Source: Bacteroidota bacterium (lineage in GTDB: Bacteria > Bacteroidota > Ignavibacteria > UBA10030). From it: a stretch of DNA of 64,000 nucleotides. This document shows, piece by piece, positions 13,489-21,304 of the stretch. Both the position numbers and the translations under genes were made by a program. The notes beneath the pieces are model-generated. The model was not told the origin of the DNA. It saw only the letters and a list, made by a program, of their open reading frames with translations, and ran no database searches. Within the stretch, counting starts at the first letter, position 1. Each line of letters starts with the position of its first letter. Location: assembly GCA_049523215.1 (NCBI GenBank), contig JBEKNC010000010.1, positions 663 through 64,662 on the forward strand. Reading direction: 5' to 3'.

Positions 13489-16470
13489 ATGAATCGATTT
13501 GATAAGTTTTCGACAGAAGATATATATGGAAGCCGCATCAAGTCGTTCCAGAAACTGATGCGCATAAAGGTGCGCGATATCCTGCTTGTCGCCAGCCTTT
13601 ATGATCAGTACCTGTTTGAAGAAGATGGCAGATTATATGAACTGATTCGACAGGAATTTCAAGTCCTCAATCTGAGTCACCCGCCAGAGATTACGCATGT
13701 GACCAGCGGTGAAGAGGCAATCGAGCTTCTTACCTCCGGCGAAAAATTCGATCTTATCATCACCACACTGCATATTGAAGATATGCATGTTATCCGATTT
13801 GCGCAAAAAGTACGACAGACAGGTATCGATATTCCCATGATCTTGTTGGCGTACGACAATCGAGAAAAAAAAGAAATCATCATGAATTACGATACATCGG
13901 TGTTCGATCGTATATTCATATGGACTGGCGATTACCGTCTCTTGGTTGCGATGATTAAGTATGTTGAAGACAGGCTCAATGTTCAAAGCGATACTGCGAC
14001 AGTTGGTGTGCAAGTTATTATTTTGGTAGAAGATGATATCAGCTTCTACTCCTCATATTTGCCGTTACTCTATACACAGATTCTCAACCAGTCCCAACGG
14101 CTCATTTCAGAAGGTGTCAATCTTACACATAAATTTCTCAGGATGCGGGCACGGCCGAAGATTTTGCTTTGTTCAACATACGAAGAAGCTTGGTCGTATT
14201 TTGAGAAATACGAAGACTTTGTGCTCGGCGTTATTTCGGATATTGACTTCCTTCGTGAAGGAGTCAAAGACTCTGAAGCAGGTTTCAAGTTTGCGGAAGC
14301 GGTGCGAAAAAAAAAGGAAGACATTCCCATCCTCCTTCAATCAGGCGATGCAAAGGCAGCGGCGAAAGCATTTGAAATCGGAGCTGCATTCCTGCAAAAG
14401 GGTTCACCGACACTCTTGCATGATCTGAATAACTTCGTTATGACGCATTTCGGGTTCGGCGACTTTATTTTTCGTATGCCGGACGGAACGGAAGTTGGAA
14501 GGGCGACGAACTTAAAACAGTTGGCAGAACATCTTCAAACTGTTCCGGATGAATGTATCCAATTTCATGCCAAGCGTAATCACTTTTCTAATTGGTTGAA
14601 GGCCAGAACGGAATTCTGGCTTGCTCATAAGCTTCGTCCGCAAAAGGTTGAAGACTTCCCGAGCACCGCTGAATTACGGAACGATTTAATCGGTGCTTTG
14701 CGGTTGTATTTAGAAACACGTCAGTTGGGCATCATTACGGAATTCTCCAAGGGATCGTTTGATCCTCAAAACAGCTTTGCGCGAATTGGTACCGGTTCGG
14801 TAGGGGGCAAGGCACGCGGCTTAGGTTTCATCAATACACTTATCAACAACTACAACATTCGTGATAAATTTGAAGGAGCGGAAATATCTGTTCCGTCGGC
14901 GGTAGTTATTGCGACGGATGTTTTCGACAGATTTTTATTGGAAAATAAACTTGAGAATTTTATTCTGGAATCAAAGAGCGACGAAGAAGTTCTCCAGCGT
15001 TTCACTGATGCACCGTACTTTCCACCTGATGTGGTCTTTCGGTTAATCGATTTTCTTGAAATTATGCACGAGCCGTTGGCTGTGCGCTCATCCAGTTTGT
15101 TGGAAGATTCACAATATCAGCCGTTTGCCGGTGTGTATCAAACCTATATGTTGCCGAACAAGAATTCCGATCCCACTGTCCGATTACATGAATTGTTGGA
15201 AAGCATAAAGCTCGTGTATGCCTCTACTTTCAGTAAACAAGCAAAAGACTACATGAAAGCAACCCCCTACCGGCTCGAAGAAGAGAAGATGGCGGTTATT
15301 ATCCAGCGAATGGTTGGTACATCACATCATAATCGATTTTATCCTGAATTTGCCGGAGTTGCAAAATCCTATAACTTCTATCCTGTACCACCGCAGAAAT
15401 CAGAAGATGGCATTGTTCAGGTTGCACTCGGATTAGGTTACACCGTGGTAGAAGGACATAACTCAGTTCGTTTTTGTCCCAAATATCCGCGTCACCTCAT
15501 GCAATTCTTTACAACAAAGGAGACGATTCGCAATGCCCAGCAAGAGTACCTTGCACTCGATCTCACGGCAACGTTCAGCCATGAAAATCATGAGACGCCG
15601 GATGTGATGATCAAACATTATGATCTGAGCACAGCAGAGGAAGATAATACGCTCTTTTATGTCGGATCCACCTATTCCCCGGAAGATGATTCTGTATATG
15701 ATGGAGTGTCACGTGCTGGGAAACGTGTTGTCACATTTGCCCCGGTCTTAAAACATCGGATATTCCCATTACCGGAAATTCTTGATTTAATTTTAGAGAT
15801 GGGGACATGGGGTATGGGCACACATGTCGAAATCGAATTTGCAGTCAATATGAATACATTACCGGGCGAACCGAAAGAGTTCGCAATGCTGCAGATTCGT
15901 CCCTTAGTTATGAACCTTGAATTTGAAGAGCTTGATGTTGATCAATTCGTTCGCGAAAACCTTATTTGTCAGAGCGAGCAGGTGCTCGGTAATGGTGCTG
16001 TCCAGGATATTTACGATATAGTCGTGGTGGATTCGGATAAGTTTGACAGATCAAAGAGTAAAGAAACGGCACGTGAAGTCAGTGAAATCAATGCCCGATT
16101 GCTTTCAGAACATCGACCATATGTGTTAATTGGAATGGGTCGATGGGGAAGCATGGATCCGTGGCTTGGTATTCCTGTCACATGGGACCAAATCTCAGGT
16201 GCGTCGGTGATTGTTGAGTCTGGTTTTAAAGACATCGATGTAACACCGTCACAAGGGTCGCATTTTTTTCAAAACATTACGTCATTTCGCGTGGGTTACT
16301 TTACTGTGAATGCCTCGCACAATCTTGGGTTCATCGATTGGGATTGGCTGAAAGTGCAGCCGGCGTTTCAGGAATTTAATCACGTTCGCCACTTGAGGTT
16401 TGATAAACCGTTCAGTGCTAAGATTAACGGACGGAAGAATAAAGGTGTGATTATGAAACCGGGGGAATAA
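13489..16470 (+). CDS. Receiver-domain / PEP-pyruvate-binding (PPDK N-terminal ATP-grasp) protein, copy 1
   Basis: Two REC-like domains, then GGKARGL, PLAVRSSSLLEDS..FAGVY ATP-grasp motifs; no pyruvate-binding barrel. Confidence 0.85.
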   Translation: MNRFDKFSTEDIYGSRIKSFQKLMRIKVRDILLVASLYDQYLFEEDGRLYELIRQEFQVLNLSHPPEITHVTSGEEAIELLTSGEKFDLIITTLHIEDMHVIRFAQKVRQTGIDIPMILLAYDNREKKEIIMNYDTSVFDRIFIWTGDYRLLVAMIKYVEDRLNVQSDTATVGVQVIILVEDDISFYSSYLPLLYTQILNQSQRLISEGVNLTHKFLRMRARPKILLCSTYEEAWSYFEKYEDFVLGVISDIDFLREGVKDSEAGFKFAEAVRKKKEDIPILLQSGDAKAAAKAFEIGAAFLQKGSPTLLHDLNNFVMTHFGFGDFIFRMPDGTEVGRATNLKQLAEHLQTVPDECIQFHAKRNHFSNWLKARTEFWLAHKLRPQKVEDFPSTAELRNDLIGALRLYLETRQLGIITEFSKGSFDPQNSFARIGTGSVGGKARGLGFINTLINNYNIRDKFEGAEISVPSAVVIATDVFDRFLLENKLENFILESKSDEEVLQRFTDAPYFPPDVVFRLIDFLEIMHEPLAVRSSSLLEDSQYQPFAGVYQTYMLPNKNSDPTVRLHELLESIKLVYASTFSKQAKDYMKATPYRLEEEKMAVIIQRMVGTSHHNRFYPEFAGVAKSYNFYPVPPQKSEDGIVQVALGLGYTVVEGHNSVRFCPKYPRHLMQFFTTKETIRNAQQEYLALDLTATFSHENHETPDVMIKHYDLSTAEEDNTLFYVGSTYSPEDDSVYDGVSRAGKRVVTFAPVLKHRIFPLPEILDLILEMGTWGMGTHVEIEFAVNMNTLPGEPKEFAMLQIRPLVMNLEFEELDVDQFVRENLICQSEQVLGNGAVQDIYDIVVVDSDKFDRSKSKETAREVSEINARLLSEHRPYVLIGMGRWGSMDPWLGIPVTWDQISGASVIVESGFKDIDVTPSQGSHFFQNITSFRVGYFTVNASHNLGFIDWDWLKVQPAFQEFNHVRHLRFDKPFSAKINGRKNKGVIMKPGE

Positions 16471-16515
16471 AGTTTAAATATTGAGAAAATCGATGCCATT
16501 TTCATATTTCCTTCC

Positions 16516-16523
16516 CTTAAGTG
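16516..16523. repeat. Left target-site duplication CTTAAGTG
   Basis: Identical to 21297-21304. Confidence 0.9.
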
Positions 16524-16539
16524 GGTAGTGGGCTACTTT
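16524..16539 (+). repeat. Left terminal inverted repeat
   Basis: GGTAGTGGGCTACTTT, exact reverse complement of 21281-21296. Confidence 0.92.
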
Positions 16540-16667
16540 AGATTCCATTTTTAGCTATTCTCGCTGTGATTCGGGAACTTATATTGCTTTTAGGTGTAAT
16601 GTTTATCATGTTTGTAGTGTCGTGCCAATAGCTCACTAAATACTTCACTAATTGTACGGGGTTCATT

Positions 16668-16955
16668 ATGGCTGCTCTCCGAGTATACTGTATCAATAAA
16701 CGAGAACATTATAACCCACATGAACGCATAACCCACATCGGTGGATTCAATGCAAATGAAACCCGATGGAAACTTACCGAAAACAACGCCATTGCTGGAA
16801 TTAAAAACGGAACATATAGTTTTTATGTTTCCATCAACGGTAAATCCGTCAATGTTATCATCGCCATACACAACGGTAGAGAATATCTCAAAACCGAAGC
16901 CGACGGATATGAACCAAATAACCTACTCAGCTTGCCAGAGTGTCCAAGCCTATAG
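16668..16955 (+). CDS. DUF3892-like small protein (passenger)
   Basis: RVYCINK...HERITHIG...YLKTEADG..NNLLSLPEC pattern. Confidence 0.75.
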   Translation: MAALRVYCINKREHYNPHERITHIGGFNANETRWKLTENNAIAGIKNGTYSFYVSINGKSVNVIIAIHNGREYLKTEADGYEPNNLLSLPECPSL

Positions 16956-16956
16956 G

Positions 16957-17166
16957 TTAAAATATTTTTCCAGTCATTGCTGTTTTGTATGGTGACATAG
17001 CAATATTGGGATTTATTACCCATGTCAACGCCTGTTGCATCGCATACAATTGACCATATCTGCCCGATGATATTGTCTTAGAATGTAGCTTATGCGAAAT
17101 ACTTTCAAGCTCCATCTTTATTCTATTCGGGGACGGGTTATTTATTTTAGGATATAGTTTCATCAT
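16957..17166 (-). CDS. Small hypothetical protein (passenger)
   Basis: 69-aa ORF convergent with the DUF3892 gene; no recognised motif. Confidence 0.45.
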   Translation of the reverse strand: MMKLYPKINNPSPNRIKMELESISHKLHSKTISSGRYGQLYAMQQALTWVINPNIAMSPYKTAMTGKIF

Positions 17167-17224
17167 TATAATTTACCGAGAAATGAGTGACACTACAACA
17201 CTAATGTGAGTACACTTGAAGACG

Positions 17225-17253
17225 TTGACTTTATCGAAGAGAATAACTATAAT
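17225..17253 (+). promoter_or_regulatory. Near-consensus sigma70 promoter with no downstream ORF
   Basis: TTGACT-N17-TATAAT. Confidence 0.8.
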
Positions 17254-17259
17254 TAGTCC

Positions 17260-17342
17260 CCTCGCGTCTTTTCCCTCCCCAAGAAAAACGCGAGCCGAAG
17301 CCTCGACAAATTTTGGCGTTTATGTCGAGGCTTCACTTTTTT
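17260..17342 (+). ncRNA. Candidate ~83-nt small RNA
   Basis: Promoter upstream, hairpin with C-rich loop, 12-bp terminator stem GAAGCCTCGACA/TGTCGAGGCTTC plus T run; no ORF. Confidence 0.55.
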
Positions 17343-18175
17343 TAAGCGGCTTTTCTAATCTGTGTTCCGAGTAATAAGTTTTCCCAAGTCCAAATTGTGT
17401 GTGTTACGTTTGCTTGCATTGCTGGCGTTACTCTCAATGATGAATGAATACGCATAAAGTTGTAATGATAGAAATGCAGTGCAACAGCACATTCAAGATT
17501 TCTTAACTTCTTACTGAAAGCATTTGTTAAACGTGTGAATCTTCTCATTTGCATTCTCATTGTAAGATTCTGTCTCTCAATGTAACTGGTAGAAATATGC
17601 TTTCTGTTAGGGCTTCCGATTAGCGGATTTATTATAACCCTCACAATCTGAGCGGGACTGTACCGTTTTTCACCTTTTCCATCATCTGCATATTCTTTGT
17701 GAATCTGTCCATAGTCAATGTCTTCACCAAAAACAGAATCTACAACATTAAAATAAGGCGCGAATGAATCCGTAGAGAGTTGAAAGCGTGTGCTGATTCT
17801 GTACTGCAAATCCTTTATGAATGATTGCGTCACTTGAATGTTTCTTTTGCCTACTTTGTAAACCGGAACAAGTTTCGTTTCTGCATCCATAGCTACAAAT
17901 ACATATTGATCGCCCAATTCTTTTGAATCATTCTCTGTGAGTTGTTTTTGTTTCTTCCCTACATAAGTCCAGATTTCATCTACTTGTACATATTTTGATT
18001 GAATGCCTACCATTTGAGTGTCAAGGATTTCTTTCGCTTGTTCTCCAGCTTCAATGAGTAAGCGCATAACTGTTTTCTTGTTCACGCCTGTGAGTCTAAC
18101 AGTGGAACGGATTGAGTTTCCTTCTACAAGGGAATTGAGAACTAAGATTTTCTTTCCGAGTGGTAATGAGTTCAT
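17342..18175 (-). CDS. IS1-family DDE transposase (single ORF, HTH plus catalytic core)
   Basis: HTH VEGNSIRSTVRLTGVNKKTV; VDEIW, LSTD, YIERQNLTMRMQMRRFTRLTNAFSKK. Confidence 0.88.
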   Translation of the reverse strand: MNSLPLGKKILVLNSLVEGNSIRSTVRLTGVNKKTVMRLLIEAGEQAKEILDTQMVGIQSKYVQVDEIWTYVGKKQKQLTENDSKELGDQYVFVAMDAETKLVPVYKVGKRNIQVTQSFIKDLQYRISTRFQLSTDSFAPYFNVVDSVFGEDIDYGQIHKEYADDGKGEKRYSPAQIVRVIINPLIGSPNRKHISTSYIERQNLTMRMQMRRFTRLTNAFSKKLRNLECAVALHFYHYNFMRIHSSLRVTPAMQANVTHTIWTWENLLLGTQIRKAA

Positions 18176-18195
18176 TGCGGTGCTCCAAGTTTAAC

Positions 18196-18224
18196 TTGAT
18201 TTTTTCCCGCAATGAACGTATATT
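18196..18224 (+). promoter_or_regulatory. Promoter firing antisense to the transposase leader
   Basis: TTGATT-N17-TATATT. Confidence 0.7.
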
Positions 18225-18230
18225 GAAACA

Positions 18231-18424
18231 GGGTCTTTGTCCGTTCACGCGGGCATTGATTTAGGGTTTGCAGGTGTTAGTAGCACTTGCAGACCCGCTT
18301 AAAAAAGCGGGTTACATAATAGTATTTTAAGCACGTTACTCATACACCGTTCCCTTCTGTGAAATGCTGATAACATTTCACTTTGATTGTTTTGAGACTG
18401 GCACTCACGTTGAGTGCCTTTTTT
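18231..18424 (+). ncRNA. Candidate ~195-nt structured antisense RNA
   Basis: Promoter, 13-bp hairpin whose two G-U wobbles work only on the + strand, further hairpins, terminator GGCACTCA/TGAGTGCC plus T6. Confidence 0.5.
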
Positions 18425-19091
18425 ATTTCGCAACATTTTTCTTCTTCAATTCTAAAAATCCAATAATAAAATCCAAATCATCAATAGTAATATTTGTCGG
18501 CAATGAAAATTCAAATTTATTTCCACTCGGAAGCTCAAAATTTTGCATTAATCCATGTGCCTGTAGAATCGTTGACACATTTTTTGTTTCTTCGCTCGGC
18601 TGTTTAACATCGTCTCTCAATGTCAAACTAAAATGCGACTTGGGACTAATGGCTTTAAAAGAATTAACCACAAATTCATACCAATAAGTAACGCCATCCC
18701 TGTCAATTCCTAACGATTTTAATAAAACTTGTTTTAATGTATCTGATTCTGGTGGCAACTTGGCATTCGGATAACGACCGAGAAGTTCTTGCAATACATC
18801 AACTTTATCAAAGGCTTTGTGAATGGCTTCTACATCTTCTCCAGCAACGGGATTAACAATTTGGACGGCAAGGTCTGTGAGCTGAATATGTTCACCTTGC
18901 TTATTCAATAAACCAAAGGTTTGAAGTGCGGCGATCCTTCGCGGGAAATAACTACTATTCTTACTTGTATTCAAAAGTTTCGGATCAAGAGAATCCATGT
19001 TGAATCGTTGATTAGCATGAATGACATAAATATCTTTGATAATCCTGATTGCGTCATTTAAATCAAGTGCAGGTGGATATTTAGTTGGCAT
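18423..19091 (-). CDS. Hypothetical protein, possible winged-helix fold (passenger)
   Basis: 222-aa ORF with SD AAAGGAG and its own promoter. Confidence 0.75.
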   Translation of the reverse strand: MPTKYPPALDLNDAIRIIKDIYVIHANQRFNMDSLDPKLLNTSKNSSYFPRRIAALQTFGLLNKQGEHIQLTDLAVQIVNPVAGEDVEAIHKAFDKVDVLQELLGRYPNAKLPPESDTLKQVLLKSLGIDRDGVTYWYEFVVNSFKAISPKSHFSLTLRDDVKQPSEETKNVSTILQAHGLMQNFELPSGNKFEFSLPTNITIDDLDFIIGFLELKKKNVAK

Positions 19092-19124
19092 CTTCGTTCT
19101 CCTTTATGTTATTCTTATTGATAC

Positions 19125-19153
19125 AATATAATACACGAATATATAAAAGTCAA
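19125..19153 (-). promoter_or_regulatory. Promoter for the 222-aa gene and probably the transposase
   Basis: TTGACT-N17-TATATT on minus strand. Confidence 0.75.
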
Positions 19154-19215
19154 GTACAAAATACAAATACTTGTATTTATTTATAGATGTGTGCATAAGA
19201 CTGGTTTTTGCTGGT

Positions 19216-19244
19216 TTGACAGAGCGCGCGAAAAGGTGTACTAT
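19216..19244 (+). promoter_or_regulatory. Promoter for the toxin-antitoxin operon
   Basis: TTGACA-N17-TACTAT. Confidence 0.75.
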
Positions 19245-19344
19245 CATGTGTAACAAAATGCACAGAATGTGGCTCCATTTTGTGCGTCGTTCTTTTACAT
19301 AAAAAATTCCGTCTATCATAGTACCTATTCAGAACGATGCTAAC

Positions 19345-19392
19345 AATTAACGCACAACGGATGAAGAATTAACGCACAACAGATGAAGAATT
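19345..19392 (+). repeat. 22-bp tandem repeat in the TA leader
   Basis: AATTAACGCACAAC(G/A)GATGAAG twice with one mismatch, plus AATT. Confidence 0.9.
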
Positions 19393-19401
19393 GAGGAAGA
19401 T

Positions 19402-19656
19402 ATGGAAAATGCAATGATAAACGAAAAAAGCCGGTTGAATTTAAACACAACCGGACTAAGCGAAAAAATGAATTTATGGGCGGAAGAACTCAATATGACT
19501 GCCACCGAACTCGTGCGTAAGGCATTAAGCGATTTCATTGACAGATTGGAACGAAATAGGCGTGAGCAGGAATTAGCAGAGGCTTGTCGGAATTACCGTG
19601 AATTCAACAAGAAGTTTTCCTCTGAGTGGGCACGATATGAGACGAGGATTAAATGA
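19402..19656 (+). CDS. Ribbon-helix-helix antitoxin (MazE/NdoAI-like)
   Basis: Beta strand-helix-helix pattern (MTATELVRKAL); 4-bp overlap with the toxin gene. Confidence 0.8.
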   Translation: MENAMINEKSRLNLNTTGLSEKMNLWAEELNMTATELVRKALSDFIDRLERNRREQELAEACRNYREFNKKFSSEWARYETRIK

Positions 19657-20006
19657 GTCATGTTCAAAGAGGGGAAGTATATATGGTTAAACCCGATCCA
19701 AGTATCGGTAAAGAACAGAAGAACAAAAGACCCTGTGTCGTGGTATCTTCAAATATAGTCAATTCAACTGCGGGGCTTATTGTTGTTTGTCCTGTCACAG
19801 AGGGGCTTGGATTGCAAGCCGATATAATTCATATTTCGTTGAATAAGGGTGAGGGTGGCTTAACAAAGGACTCTATTATTTTGTGCGATCAAATAAAAGC
19901 AGTAGATGAGACGCGAATAATAGAAAAGCTGGGCAATCTAAGTGGGGGAATCATGCAAAAGATAGACACCGCCTTGTGTGATATCCTAAATCTTCATAAG
20001 AATTAG
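19653..20006 (+). CDS. mazF: MazF/PemK endoribonuclease toxin
   Basis: RGEVYMV..DPSIGKEQ..KRPCVVVS, SIILCDQIKAVD. Confidence 0.93.
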   Translation: MSHVQRGEVYMVKPDPSIGKEQKNKRPCVVVSSNIVNSTAGLIVVCPVTEGLGLQADIIHISLNKGEGGLTKDSIILCDQIKAVDETRIIEKLGNLSGGIMQKIDTALCDILNLHKN

Positions 20007-20026
20007 CGTTACGATATATACCACGA

Positions 20027-20052
20027 TAAAGCCCCATTTGTGAGGGGCTTTA
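20027..20052. terminator. Bidirectional terminator
   Basis: TAAAGCCCC / GGGGCTTTA between convergent ORFs. Confidence 0.7.
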
Positions 20053-20304
20053 TTGTTTAATTAAAACGGTTTGCACTTCCCCATTTTCCACAAACAACGC
20101 ATATCCATTCGGCACAATTTCACCTTTTCTCACATCCCGCACTACCACATATCTTTCCCGCTTTTCAACGTGCCGATCTTTAGGGTTTCTGTGAACACAG
20201 GTAATATACCACTTATCCCCGCCGTTCATCGTTCGAGCAAAAGAGATAGCTTCACTCTTAGATAAGCTGTTGCTAATAGCGAACATTAATGTTTTATTTT
20301 TCAT
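20050..20304 (-). CDS. Small hypothetical protein (passenger)
   Basis: 84-aa ORF ending at the terminator; protein-like composition. Confidence 0.55.
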   Translation of the reverse strand: MKNKTLMFAISNSLSKSEAISFARTMNGGDKWYITCVHRNPKDRHVEKRERYVVVRDVRKGEIVPNGYALFVENGEVQTVLIKQ

Positions 20305-20338
20305 ATTATTGATGTATTAGGGCTTGGTTAAAAAATAA

Positions 20339-21196
20339 ATGAGCACAATAAAAAGACAAAAGAGAAATAAAAAGGAACAAGACAGCAATCTTCCTGTTTC
20401 TCTTAAAGATGAGTCCCAAAAACTTGAGGACAGAGAAAATCCCGAAAACATTACCGCTATTGAAGAATACAAAGCTCAGTCCGTAATAAAACCCATATTT
20501 ATTCCCAAAGAGACTCTTTTCGTCGAAGAAGGAAGATTTGAGAAAGTTAGAATTGCCCTTGAAATCATTGTTACAATTGTTGGACTCGGAACTCTTTGGT
20601 GGTTCATTCAATCCAGCGCAACTCAACACGCCGATTCTGTCAATGCTCTCAAATTGGCTAAAGAGTCCTCTGATTCTTCCGATATAGCCACAAAAAAATC
20701 TATTGCTCTTGCTGAAAGTTCTTTTGTCGCTACAAAAAAGAGCTTGCAACTTGCTCAAAGGAATTTTCAAATCGAAAATAGACCTTACGTGGGAATAAAA
20801 AATATTACTATTGATTCTTTGGAAGTTGGCAAGAAATATGTTATCAAAATCTTTTATCAAAACTTTGGGAAAATTCCAGCGCAAAACCTGATAATCACCG
20901 GCATAGGAGAACCACATACCATTAGGGAATATAATATTTTTAAATATGATACGACCATAGGAAGTATAGCTGTTGTGCCGCCCTCGGAAATTCTCTTTGC
21001 TACCCTTGTTAGTGATGGTAAGTTGACTAACGAAGAGATTGATAATTTTAGGAGGGGAAATTGGTATCTTTATGTTTATGGTATGATTACATATTCGGAT
21101 GTTTTCAATGGGAAAGACACTACAACATTTTGCTTCATGCTTGATTATTCCAGTAAAATGTTTTATGCTGGTCGCTATAATAACAGGATAAAATAA
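20339..21196 (+). CDS. Single-pass membrane hypothetical protein (passenger)
   Basis: Charged N-terminus, one TM helix, coiled coil, beta-rich C domain (ENRPYV...NFGKIPA). Confidence 0.7.
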   Translation: MSTIKRQKRNKKEQDSNLPVSLKDESQKLEDRENPENITAIEEYKAQSVIKPIFIPKETLFVEEGRFEKVRIALEIIVTIVGLGTLWWFIQSSATQHADSVNALKLAKESSDSSDIATKKSIALAESSFVATKKSLQLAQRNFQIENRPYVGIKNITIDSLEVGKKYVIKIFYQNFGKIPAQNLIITGIGEPHTIREYNIFKYDTTIGSIAVVPPSEILFATLVSDGKLTNEEIDNFRRGNWYLYVYGMITYSDVFNGKDTTTFCFMLDYSSKMFYAGRYNNRIK

Positions 21197-21280
21197 TATG
21201 AGCAAACCCAAACCAATAATTAGAACCGAAGTTAGAAACCCGACAAACCCAACCCCGCCCTTACCCCTATATATGGATCC

Positions 21281-21296
21281 AAAGTAGCCCACTACC
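21281..21296 (-). repeat. Right terminal inverted repeat
   Basis: AAAGTAGCCCACTACC. Confidence 0.92.
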
Positions 21297-21304
21297 CTTA
21301 AGTG
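21297..21304. repeat. Right target-site duplication CTTAAGTG
   Basis: Identical to 16516-16523. Confidence 0.9.

Follow-up and report, generated by a model that had tools for sequence, protein, structure and literature searches.

A predicted small RNA gene with a C-rich loop, carried by an IS1-type cargo transposon in an Ignavibacteria-like bacterium

The locus

The window (the whole stretch of DNA that was analysed, 64,000 nucleotides) contains an IS1-type transposon, and inside this element lies a short module in which a promoter is followed by two hairpins and a T run. The module can be read as a candidate small RNA gene on the plus strand that converges on the transposase gene of the same element. 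The features of the locus are:

16516-16523 and 21297-21304: 8-bp target duplication, CTTAAGTG
16524-21296, no strand: 4,773-bp IS1-type cargo transposon (transporter IS, tIS) containing the RNA gene
16524-16539 and 21281-21296: left (IRL) and right (IRR) inverted repeats, GGTAGTGGGCTACTTT, inverted at the right end
16668-16955: DUF3892 cargo gene
17160-17224, no strand: conserved segment 5' of the RNA promoter (…AATGTGAGTACACTTGAA), kept in transposon copies without the RNA
17225-17230 and 17248-17253, plus strand: sigma-70-type promoter, TTGACT, 17-nt spacer, TATAAT, 11/12 match
17259-17343, plus strand: predicted small RNA of ~85 nt, 5' CCCCUCGCG ... UUUUUUU 3', 93.9 bits with covariance model R1
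17261-17294, plus strand: hairpin 1, CTCGCGT(c)TTTTC / GAAAA ACGCGAG, supported by covariation
17274-17282, plus strand: C-rich apical loop of hairpin 1, nine bases, CCTCCCCAA (in RNA, CCUCCCCAA)
17297-17334, plus strand: hairpin 2, a perfect 12-bp stem and a 14-nt loop with a conserved UUGGCG
17337-17343, plus strand: run of seven T (U7 tract), after hairpin 2
17342-18175, minus strand: 277-aa DDE transposase, a distant member of the IS1 family, whose gene converges on that of the RNA
19402-20006: transposon cargo, a PemK/MazF-type toxin (117 aa, E = 5e-28) and an overlapping upstream 84-aa ORF

The preliminary description of this DNA had reported the promoter, the two hairpins, the C-rich loop and the T run at the transposase stop codon, and all of them were recovered in place. 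With its score of 11/12, TTGACT-N17-TATAAT tops the 14 promoter-like sites between 16400 and 19400, and the pattern TTGAC-N18-TATAAT occurs once in the 64-kb window versus 0.08 times expected from shuffles. The 5' and 3' ends of the RNA are predictions based on the positions of promoter and T run. An 89-nt RNA from this position folds at -33 kcal/mol (z = -6.0), and none of 200 shuffles is equally stable. We infer that hairpin 2 and the U7 tract act as an intrinsic terminator of the RNA; hairpin 2 is probably bidirectional, serving the convergent transposase gene as well, and a weak minus strand terminator call coincides with it. The stop codon of the transposase (TAA, minus strand) occupies 17342-17344 and overlaps the T run by 2 nt. 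The same description had seen no ORF in the module. A 52-codon frame opening with TTG (17216-17374) does span it, but this frame is not coding, because the indels among homologues are not multiples of three and break it. A search of positions 15000-20000 on both strands against Rfam 15, which includes RsaE, csRNA and LhrC-type entries, gave no match at E <= 1.

The carrier transposon

The ends of the transposon are of the IS1 type (GGnnnTG, here GGTAGTG). Its inverted repeats, its 8-bp target duplication and the empty site in relatives confirm that the window copy of the RNA is, as had been claimed, transposon-encoded; the empty site is intact in two sister genomes (G004:C5 and G015:C1), where the joined flanks align uninterrupted at 89-90% identity. 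A sister element of 4.2 kb in G009 (L113 6602-10814) occupies a different site and has its own 8-bp duplication, CAAGCTTT. The transposase gene sits in the middle of the 4,773-bp element and has more than 530 relatives in many phyla. Its product scores 26.1 bits with Pfam DDE_Tnp_IS1 (cut-off 24.1), over a short stretch only, and 56 bits with NCBIfam IS1 (E = 4.6e-15), which is under the cut-off of 100. In addition to the toxin and DUF3892 genes, the cargo includes several ORFs without a family match.

Some parts of the element other than the RNA are also conserved. The segment of about 60 nt that precedes the RNA promoter (17160-17224; L017/L122, L113) is shared by transposon copies despite differing leftward genes: the gene beside it encodes 69 aa in the window, and other genes stand there in G009 and G004. 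Besides a TACACT box (17211-17216), this segment contains a promoter-like site on the minus strand that belongs to the 69-aa cargo gene, and it could function as a common promoter or operator from which differing cargo genes are expressed. About 150 nt 5' of the transposase start (18176-18330, the leader of the minus strand mRNA) are likewise conserved in homologues, other lineages included, whose proteins are merely 69-91% identical. This stretch includes hairpins (CCCGCTTTTTTAAGCGGG and GCCCGCGTGAACGG...CGTTCATTGCGGG), has no Rfam match and resembles a structured mRNA leader belonging to this IS family.

The insertion site is itself a hot spot: G001:C44 and G009:C8 hold a different insert of ~3.06 kb at the same position; G008:C8 has ~5.3 kb between the same two flanks; and G004 and G015 are empty. 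At another locus, L114 (G001:C119, ~2880-2950), the left end of the transposon adjoins a sequence that, judged by eye, resembles a tRNA 3' end (GGTTCGAGCCCGGTACGGTCCAC).

A structured RNA family in one genus

The module is present once in its own 3.28-Mb draft genome, on the transposon, and BLAST finds copies in sister species at 73-79% identity. A covariance model (R1) built from 11 module copies retrieves 17 copies with scores of 39-101 bits. They come from one genus, where 8 of 16 species have the RNA, at 1-4 per genome. The same search returned zero copies from 32 other genera of the family. Among ~185,000 reference species none outside the genus carries the RNA: an exact-pattern scan matched three MAGs within the genus, which derive from fen and SPRUCE peat and bear the label Ignavibacteriae/Bacteroidota, and the remaining pattern matches failed the covariance model. 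A metagenome scan added 12 contigs with the RNA, only three of which are new variants. Judged from their sequences, the 17 copies are a new RNA family, without an Rfam match, confined to one genus of peat Ignavibacteria-like bacteria.

The two hairpins are strongly supported by the comparison of copies. In the 17-sequence alignment, which was fitted to the model and consists of related sequences, 96.6% of the pair cells are canonical versus 29-51% in slid controls, and compensatory double changes occur in 12 of the 21 pairs; no shuffle matched the observed values. Both helices contribute: helix 1 has 10 pairs, 6 of them with compensatory double changes (95.3% of cells paired), and helix 2 has 11 pairs, 6 with double changes (97.8% paired). 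G-U cells outnumber A-C cells by 42 to 4, with 96.6% pairing on the plus strand and 85.9% on the minus strand, which identifies the plus strand, the same strand as the promoter, as the RNA strand. The promoter hexamers are kept in ~13 of the 17 copies and in a metagenome variant (L211). Three copies lack a 40-nt promoter piece and have a TACACT / CATAAT box 4-5 nt before the same 5' end. The covariation and the strand asymmetry back the earlier reading of the module as an RNA gene in its own right; its structure is supported, and its promoter is conserved.

As for the single-stranded parts, loop 1 always contains a CUCC, UCCCC or CCCCUC motif, and the CUCCCC / CCCCUC form is kept in nearly all 17 copies, so that the exposed C-rich loop noted at first sight holds for the family. 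Conservation extends to the CCCC at the 5' end, to the UUGGCG of loop 2 and, in the majority of copies, to a UCCCC linker. The U tract is weak in about half of the copies and strongest (U7) in the window copy. Kissing of loop 1 (CCAA) with loop 2 (UUGG) was considered and discarded: there is no covariation between the two, and a group of orthologues, the 'a' copies, drops UUGGCG and retains loop 1. These 'a' copies, from three species, are 95-98% identical, and the adjacent single-copy core protein is 86-92% identical, a difference that indicates purifying selection on the RNA.

The genes that neighbour the 14 RNA copies without a transposase are unrelated, and three of these 14 copies sit 3' of a core 209-aa gene that is present in every species. 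In one genome (L242, G004:C29:4000-20000), two divergent RNA gene copies, 68% identical, flank a block of ~13 kb. The block separates the 209-aa core gene from a 144-aa gene, two genes that adjoin in G001 and G015, and it contains a type IIG-like methylase/restriction gene and genes for a DUF4145 protein, a GNAT, an SDR and an epimerase. The idea that the RNA is an integration target was dropped, as the ~13-kb block between the two G004 copies is without an integrase.

Proposed function and transcription

The explanation that we favour, with moderate confidence, is that the module is a stand-alone 'sibling' sRNA gene, not an accessory of the transposase, which travels here as a passenger, whose C-rich strands pair in trans and whose hairpin 2 terminates transcription. 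A sigma-70-type promoter would drive a plus strand transcript of ~85 nt with a short C-rich 5' tail, hairpin 1 with its pyrimidine-rich loop (CCUCCCCAA), and hairpin 2 followed by U7. The only copy in this genome would have arrived as cargo of a 4.8-kb IS1-family transporter IS. The C/U-rich single strands (the 5' tail, loop 1 and, in most paralogues, the UCCCC linker) would pair with purine-rich, Shine-Dalgarno (SD)-like sites in mRNAs, and such pairing would lower the translation or the stability of the target mRNA. Hairpin 2 would also end the convergent transposase transcript.

Evidence of transcription comes from relatives. A search for an RNA run holding the window's own copy found none, and the peat metatranscriptomes compared with the window contain fragments of relatives only. 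The 'a' paralogue, the best conserved of all, is, in contrast to most of the sequence that flanks it, covered by short contigs (157-265 nt) in four peat or wetland metatranscriptomes (X7-X10). These contigs are assembled and strandless, have imprecise ends and may include DNA carry-over; one of them is a single library fragment, because adapter remnants are present. On this evidence the region of the 'a' paralogue is transcribed, but a discrete RNA and its ends are predictions. In X8 the depth of the module contig is 13.6 versus 6.8 for the neighbouring gene. The paralogues G009c and G009b were undetected in the same runs.

The contigs also bear on the main rival, which we consider rather unlikely. 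It holds that the module is a portable promoter with a structured 5' leader, which acts in cis to drive, stabilise or attenuate a downstream gene, with hairpin 2 as a leaky or regulated terminator. Two contigs, from X9 and X10, miss the first 11-14 nt of the predicted RNA and extend 136-183 nt beyond hairpin 2, toward or into a downstream ORF, as a leader would; the other two start 27-49 nt before the predicted start and stop ~30 nt after hairpin 2. Read-through past hairpin 2 fits the weak U tracts of the 'a' copies, and such tracts, found in many copies, also speak for this rival. A co-oriented gene lies 30-300 nt downstream at six or seven copies. However, these downstream genes are unrelated to one another, and five copies, the window's included, face a convergent gene and have nothing to lead into. 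The window module would be an orphan under this reading, because the next gene is the convergent transposase, and its strong U7 terminator also argues against a leader. Nor does a generic leader explain the conservation of the loop motif.

Relation to the transposase

The stand-alone reading also has to be weighed against a role in transposition. The preliminary description had suggested a cis-antisense regulator of the transposase. On this reading the RNA, encoded by the transposon, would tune transposition either by pairing at the 3' end of the transposase message or through collision of the two convergent transcriptions. The arrangement itself invites the suggestion: the RNA is convergent with the transposase gene; hairpin 2 is common to both transcripts if it is bidirectional; the same arrangement recurs in three transposon copies (G000, G009:C7 and G001:C119); and an X10 contig joins a transposase 3' end to module-like sequence.

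The distribution of the RNA speaks against it. Conservation beside homologous transposases had been set beforehand as a test, and it is largely lacking: the module is present at 1 of 80 homologous transposase loci and, among the close transposase copies within the genus, at 3 of 7. The four without it have other terminators or nothing in its place. In G004:C16 (= L017) the transposase stop codon is joined straight to ...AAGTGTACTCACATT, with the upstream segment kept; G011 has unrelated sequence where the RNA would be; and G006 and G013 have plain terminator hairpins, the one in G006 with the same AGCCTCGA core as hairpin 2. Conversely, tblastn finds neither a transposase nor a relic of one near 14 of the 17 RNA copies. 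The transposon-borne RNAs are ~70% identical to each other and their transposase DNA ~81%. The RNA shares just 2 nt with the transposase ORF, at the 3' end of the latter, so that an RNA-OUT-type overlap with the initiation region, or with much of the mRNA, is absent; the complementarity of the RNA to the transposase leader is not above that of shuffles, and none of significance was found to the ribosome-binding site (RBS) either. We therefore regard the cis-antisense regulator as quite improbable. The idea that transposases of this family regularly come with the RNA was rejected as well, on the 1/80 loci and the four close copies in the genus without it.

Search for targets

If the RNA is a stand-alone sRNA, pairing in trans with purine-rich, SD-like mRNA sites would be its likeliest mode of action. 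The preliminary description had named trans repression of cargo or host mRNAs as its second possibility. The genome uses SD sites, with the core 4-mer at ~30% of crude ORF starts and a peak at -12 to -9, which gives a CCUCC-type loop a wide choice of potential partners. A seed of the anti-SD type is by nature unspecific. In RNAduplex, pairing of the loop is not enriched at the crude translation starts, all of which were scanned (-6.05 versus -5.90 kcal/mol for random windows). Against the RBSs of the transposon itself, that of the transposase included, the genes range from the 17th to the 97th percentile with no outlier among the cargo genes, and these sites are no more complementary than those of average genes. 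Two individual candidates were set aside. A 223-aa exonuclease-like gene has UUCUUGGGGAG before its ATG, but in its extended form the match occurs in this genome alone, and what is left of it is an ordinary SD site that does not track the RNA-bearing species (16 species compared). The top duplex match, to a KdpD-like gene, is an artefact of a wrong start codon. The trans-pairing mechanism rests on analogy, as no pairing specificity was found. RNA-guided transposition of the bridge-RNA kind was also set aside, since the loops, by inspection, are complementary neither to the inverted repeats nor to the target duplication.

That no specific mRNA target emerged from the duplex scans, and that C-rich single strands recur redundantly in the 5' tail, loop 1 and the linker, would suit a protein-binding or decoy RNA. 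Its C-rich strands would sequester a protein such as a KH-type poly-C binder, or imitate the anti-SD tail of 16S rRNA. No gene for a partner protein is linked to the RNA copies, however, and the reading is purely inferential; we hold it to be very doubtful.

Borders of the chromosomal copies

At the locus of the 209-aa core gene, G015 is without a block of ~185 bp that G001 has. The block opens with GGTAGTGTCTTAATTTAAAT, starting exactly at GGTAGTG, and this sequence agrees with the inverted repeat of the transposon at 15/20 positions, a match that none of 2,000 shuffles equals. IRL-like boxes lie just upstream of three chromosomal copies (G001a, 15/20; G009d, 13/20; G001b, 12/20). A right-hand, IRR-like repeat was found at none of the 17 copies, and no target duplication was seen at the G001/G015 indel. 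A full MITE was rejected, as the inverted-repeat match is at the left border only and in 3/17 copies, with neither an IRR nor a target duplication. It is conceivable, but in our estimate unlikely, that the RNA family was spread by IS1-type cargo transposons, which would make its chromosomal copies remnants of transposon ends.

A DNA-level element (a decayed transposon end, a MITE or a recombination site), whose hairpins matter as DNA and whose promoter hexamers are incidental, is highly improbable: it would account for the sharp-bordered presence or absence of the module (G001 versus G015 and, in the transposon, G000 versus G004:C16) and for the IRL-like sequences at G001a, G009d and G001b, but not for the missing right-side repeat and target duplication, the selection on one RNA strand that follows from 42 G-U versus 4 A-C cells, the conserved hexamers or the very low copy number.

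Comparison with known systems

Read as a stand-alone sRNA gene, the module resembles several known RNAs. The LhrC1-5 RNAs of Listeria monocytogenes, like the window family, are multicopy, ~90-110 nt long, and combine their own promoter with a 5' stem-loop and a terminator stem-loop; both have CU-rich motifs (CUCCC) in the loop and in single-stranded stretches. LhrC binds lapB at its G-rich SD region through CUCCC motifs, which it has in a loop, in a single strand and in the terminator loop, and a UCCC motif has the same role in RsaE/RoxS, RNAIII, SprD and FsrA (PMC4132741). In contrast to the LhrC loops, which bind SD sites, those of the window family are only proposed to do so. There is also no similarity in sequence or covariance model between the two; the window family belongs to another phylum (Ignavibacteria-like Bacteroidota), and one of its copies is transposon cargo.

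The CiaR-dependent csRNAs of streptococci carry sequences complementary to SD sites and start codons. Like the window family, they have 1-6 paralogues per genome, a conserved promoter and a terminator. They constitute a genus-wide multicopy family whose layout is similar (PMC3091779, PMC4507080). The anti-SD sequence of the csRNAs lies between the stem-loops, whereas the main motif of the window family lies in an apical loop, and the sequences are unrelated. For the csRNAs the transcription factor is known; in the window family, the conserved upstream GTGAGTACAC / AGGCACAC box could be a transcription-factor site.

RNA-OUT of IS10 and other antisense RNAs of insertion sequences, like the window RNA, are small and structured and lie inside a transposable element opposite to the transposase gene. 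RNA-OUT overlaps the start of transposase translation and is an obligate part of the IS. The window RNA, by contrast, lies beyond the 3' end with an overlap of 2 nt, is absent in the majority of the element's relatives and is mostly found free of a transposase.

The carrier is comparable to the transporter IS (tIS; PMC9330008) of the IS1 family in its IS1-type ends, 8-bp target duplication, single-ORF DDE transposase and passenger genes. It differs in that a passenger is an RNA gene, the transposase lies mid-element and the score is under the NCBIfam IS1 cut-off. Passenger genes occur in the ISMhu11-type single-ORF group of the IS1 family (ISfinder). To our knowledge, from a non-exhaustive look at the literature, RNA genes have not been described among tIS passengers.

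Implications

We rate a sibling sRNA with a C-rich loop as a known kind of RNA, and its travel as IS cargo as less usual. The narrow range, one uncultured genus, limits the value of the finding. Regulatory RNAs are essentially uncharted in Ignavibacteria and their relatives, and a family supported by covariation is now added. The hallmarks of C-rich sibling sRNAs are known from Firmicutes, and their presence here suggests that the same solution arose in a distant phylum. If the family was spread by transposons, an anti-SD-like RNA would be brought along to alter host translation or to benefit the transposon. Such a trans-acting sRNA, disseminated by transposons, would be a kind of passenger that, as far as we know, is undescribed for IS elements. 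In the window, a derivative of an insertion sequence can be seen to carry a complete predicted small-RNA gene as cargo into a genome without another copy, and a cargo sRNA gene of this kind would offer a route for the horizontal spread of post-transcriptional regulators.
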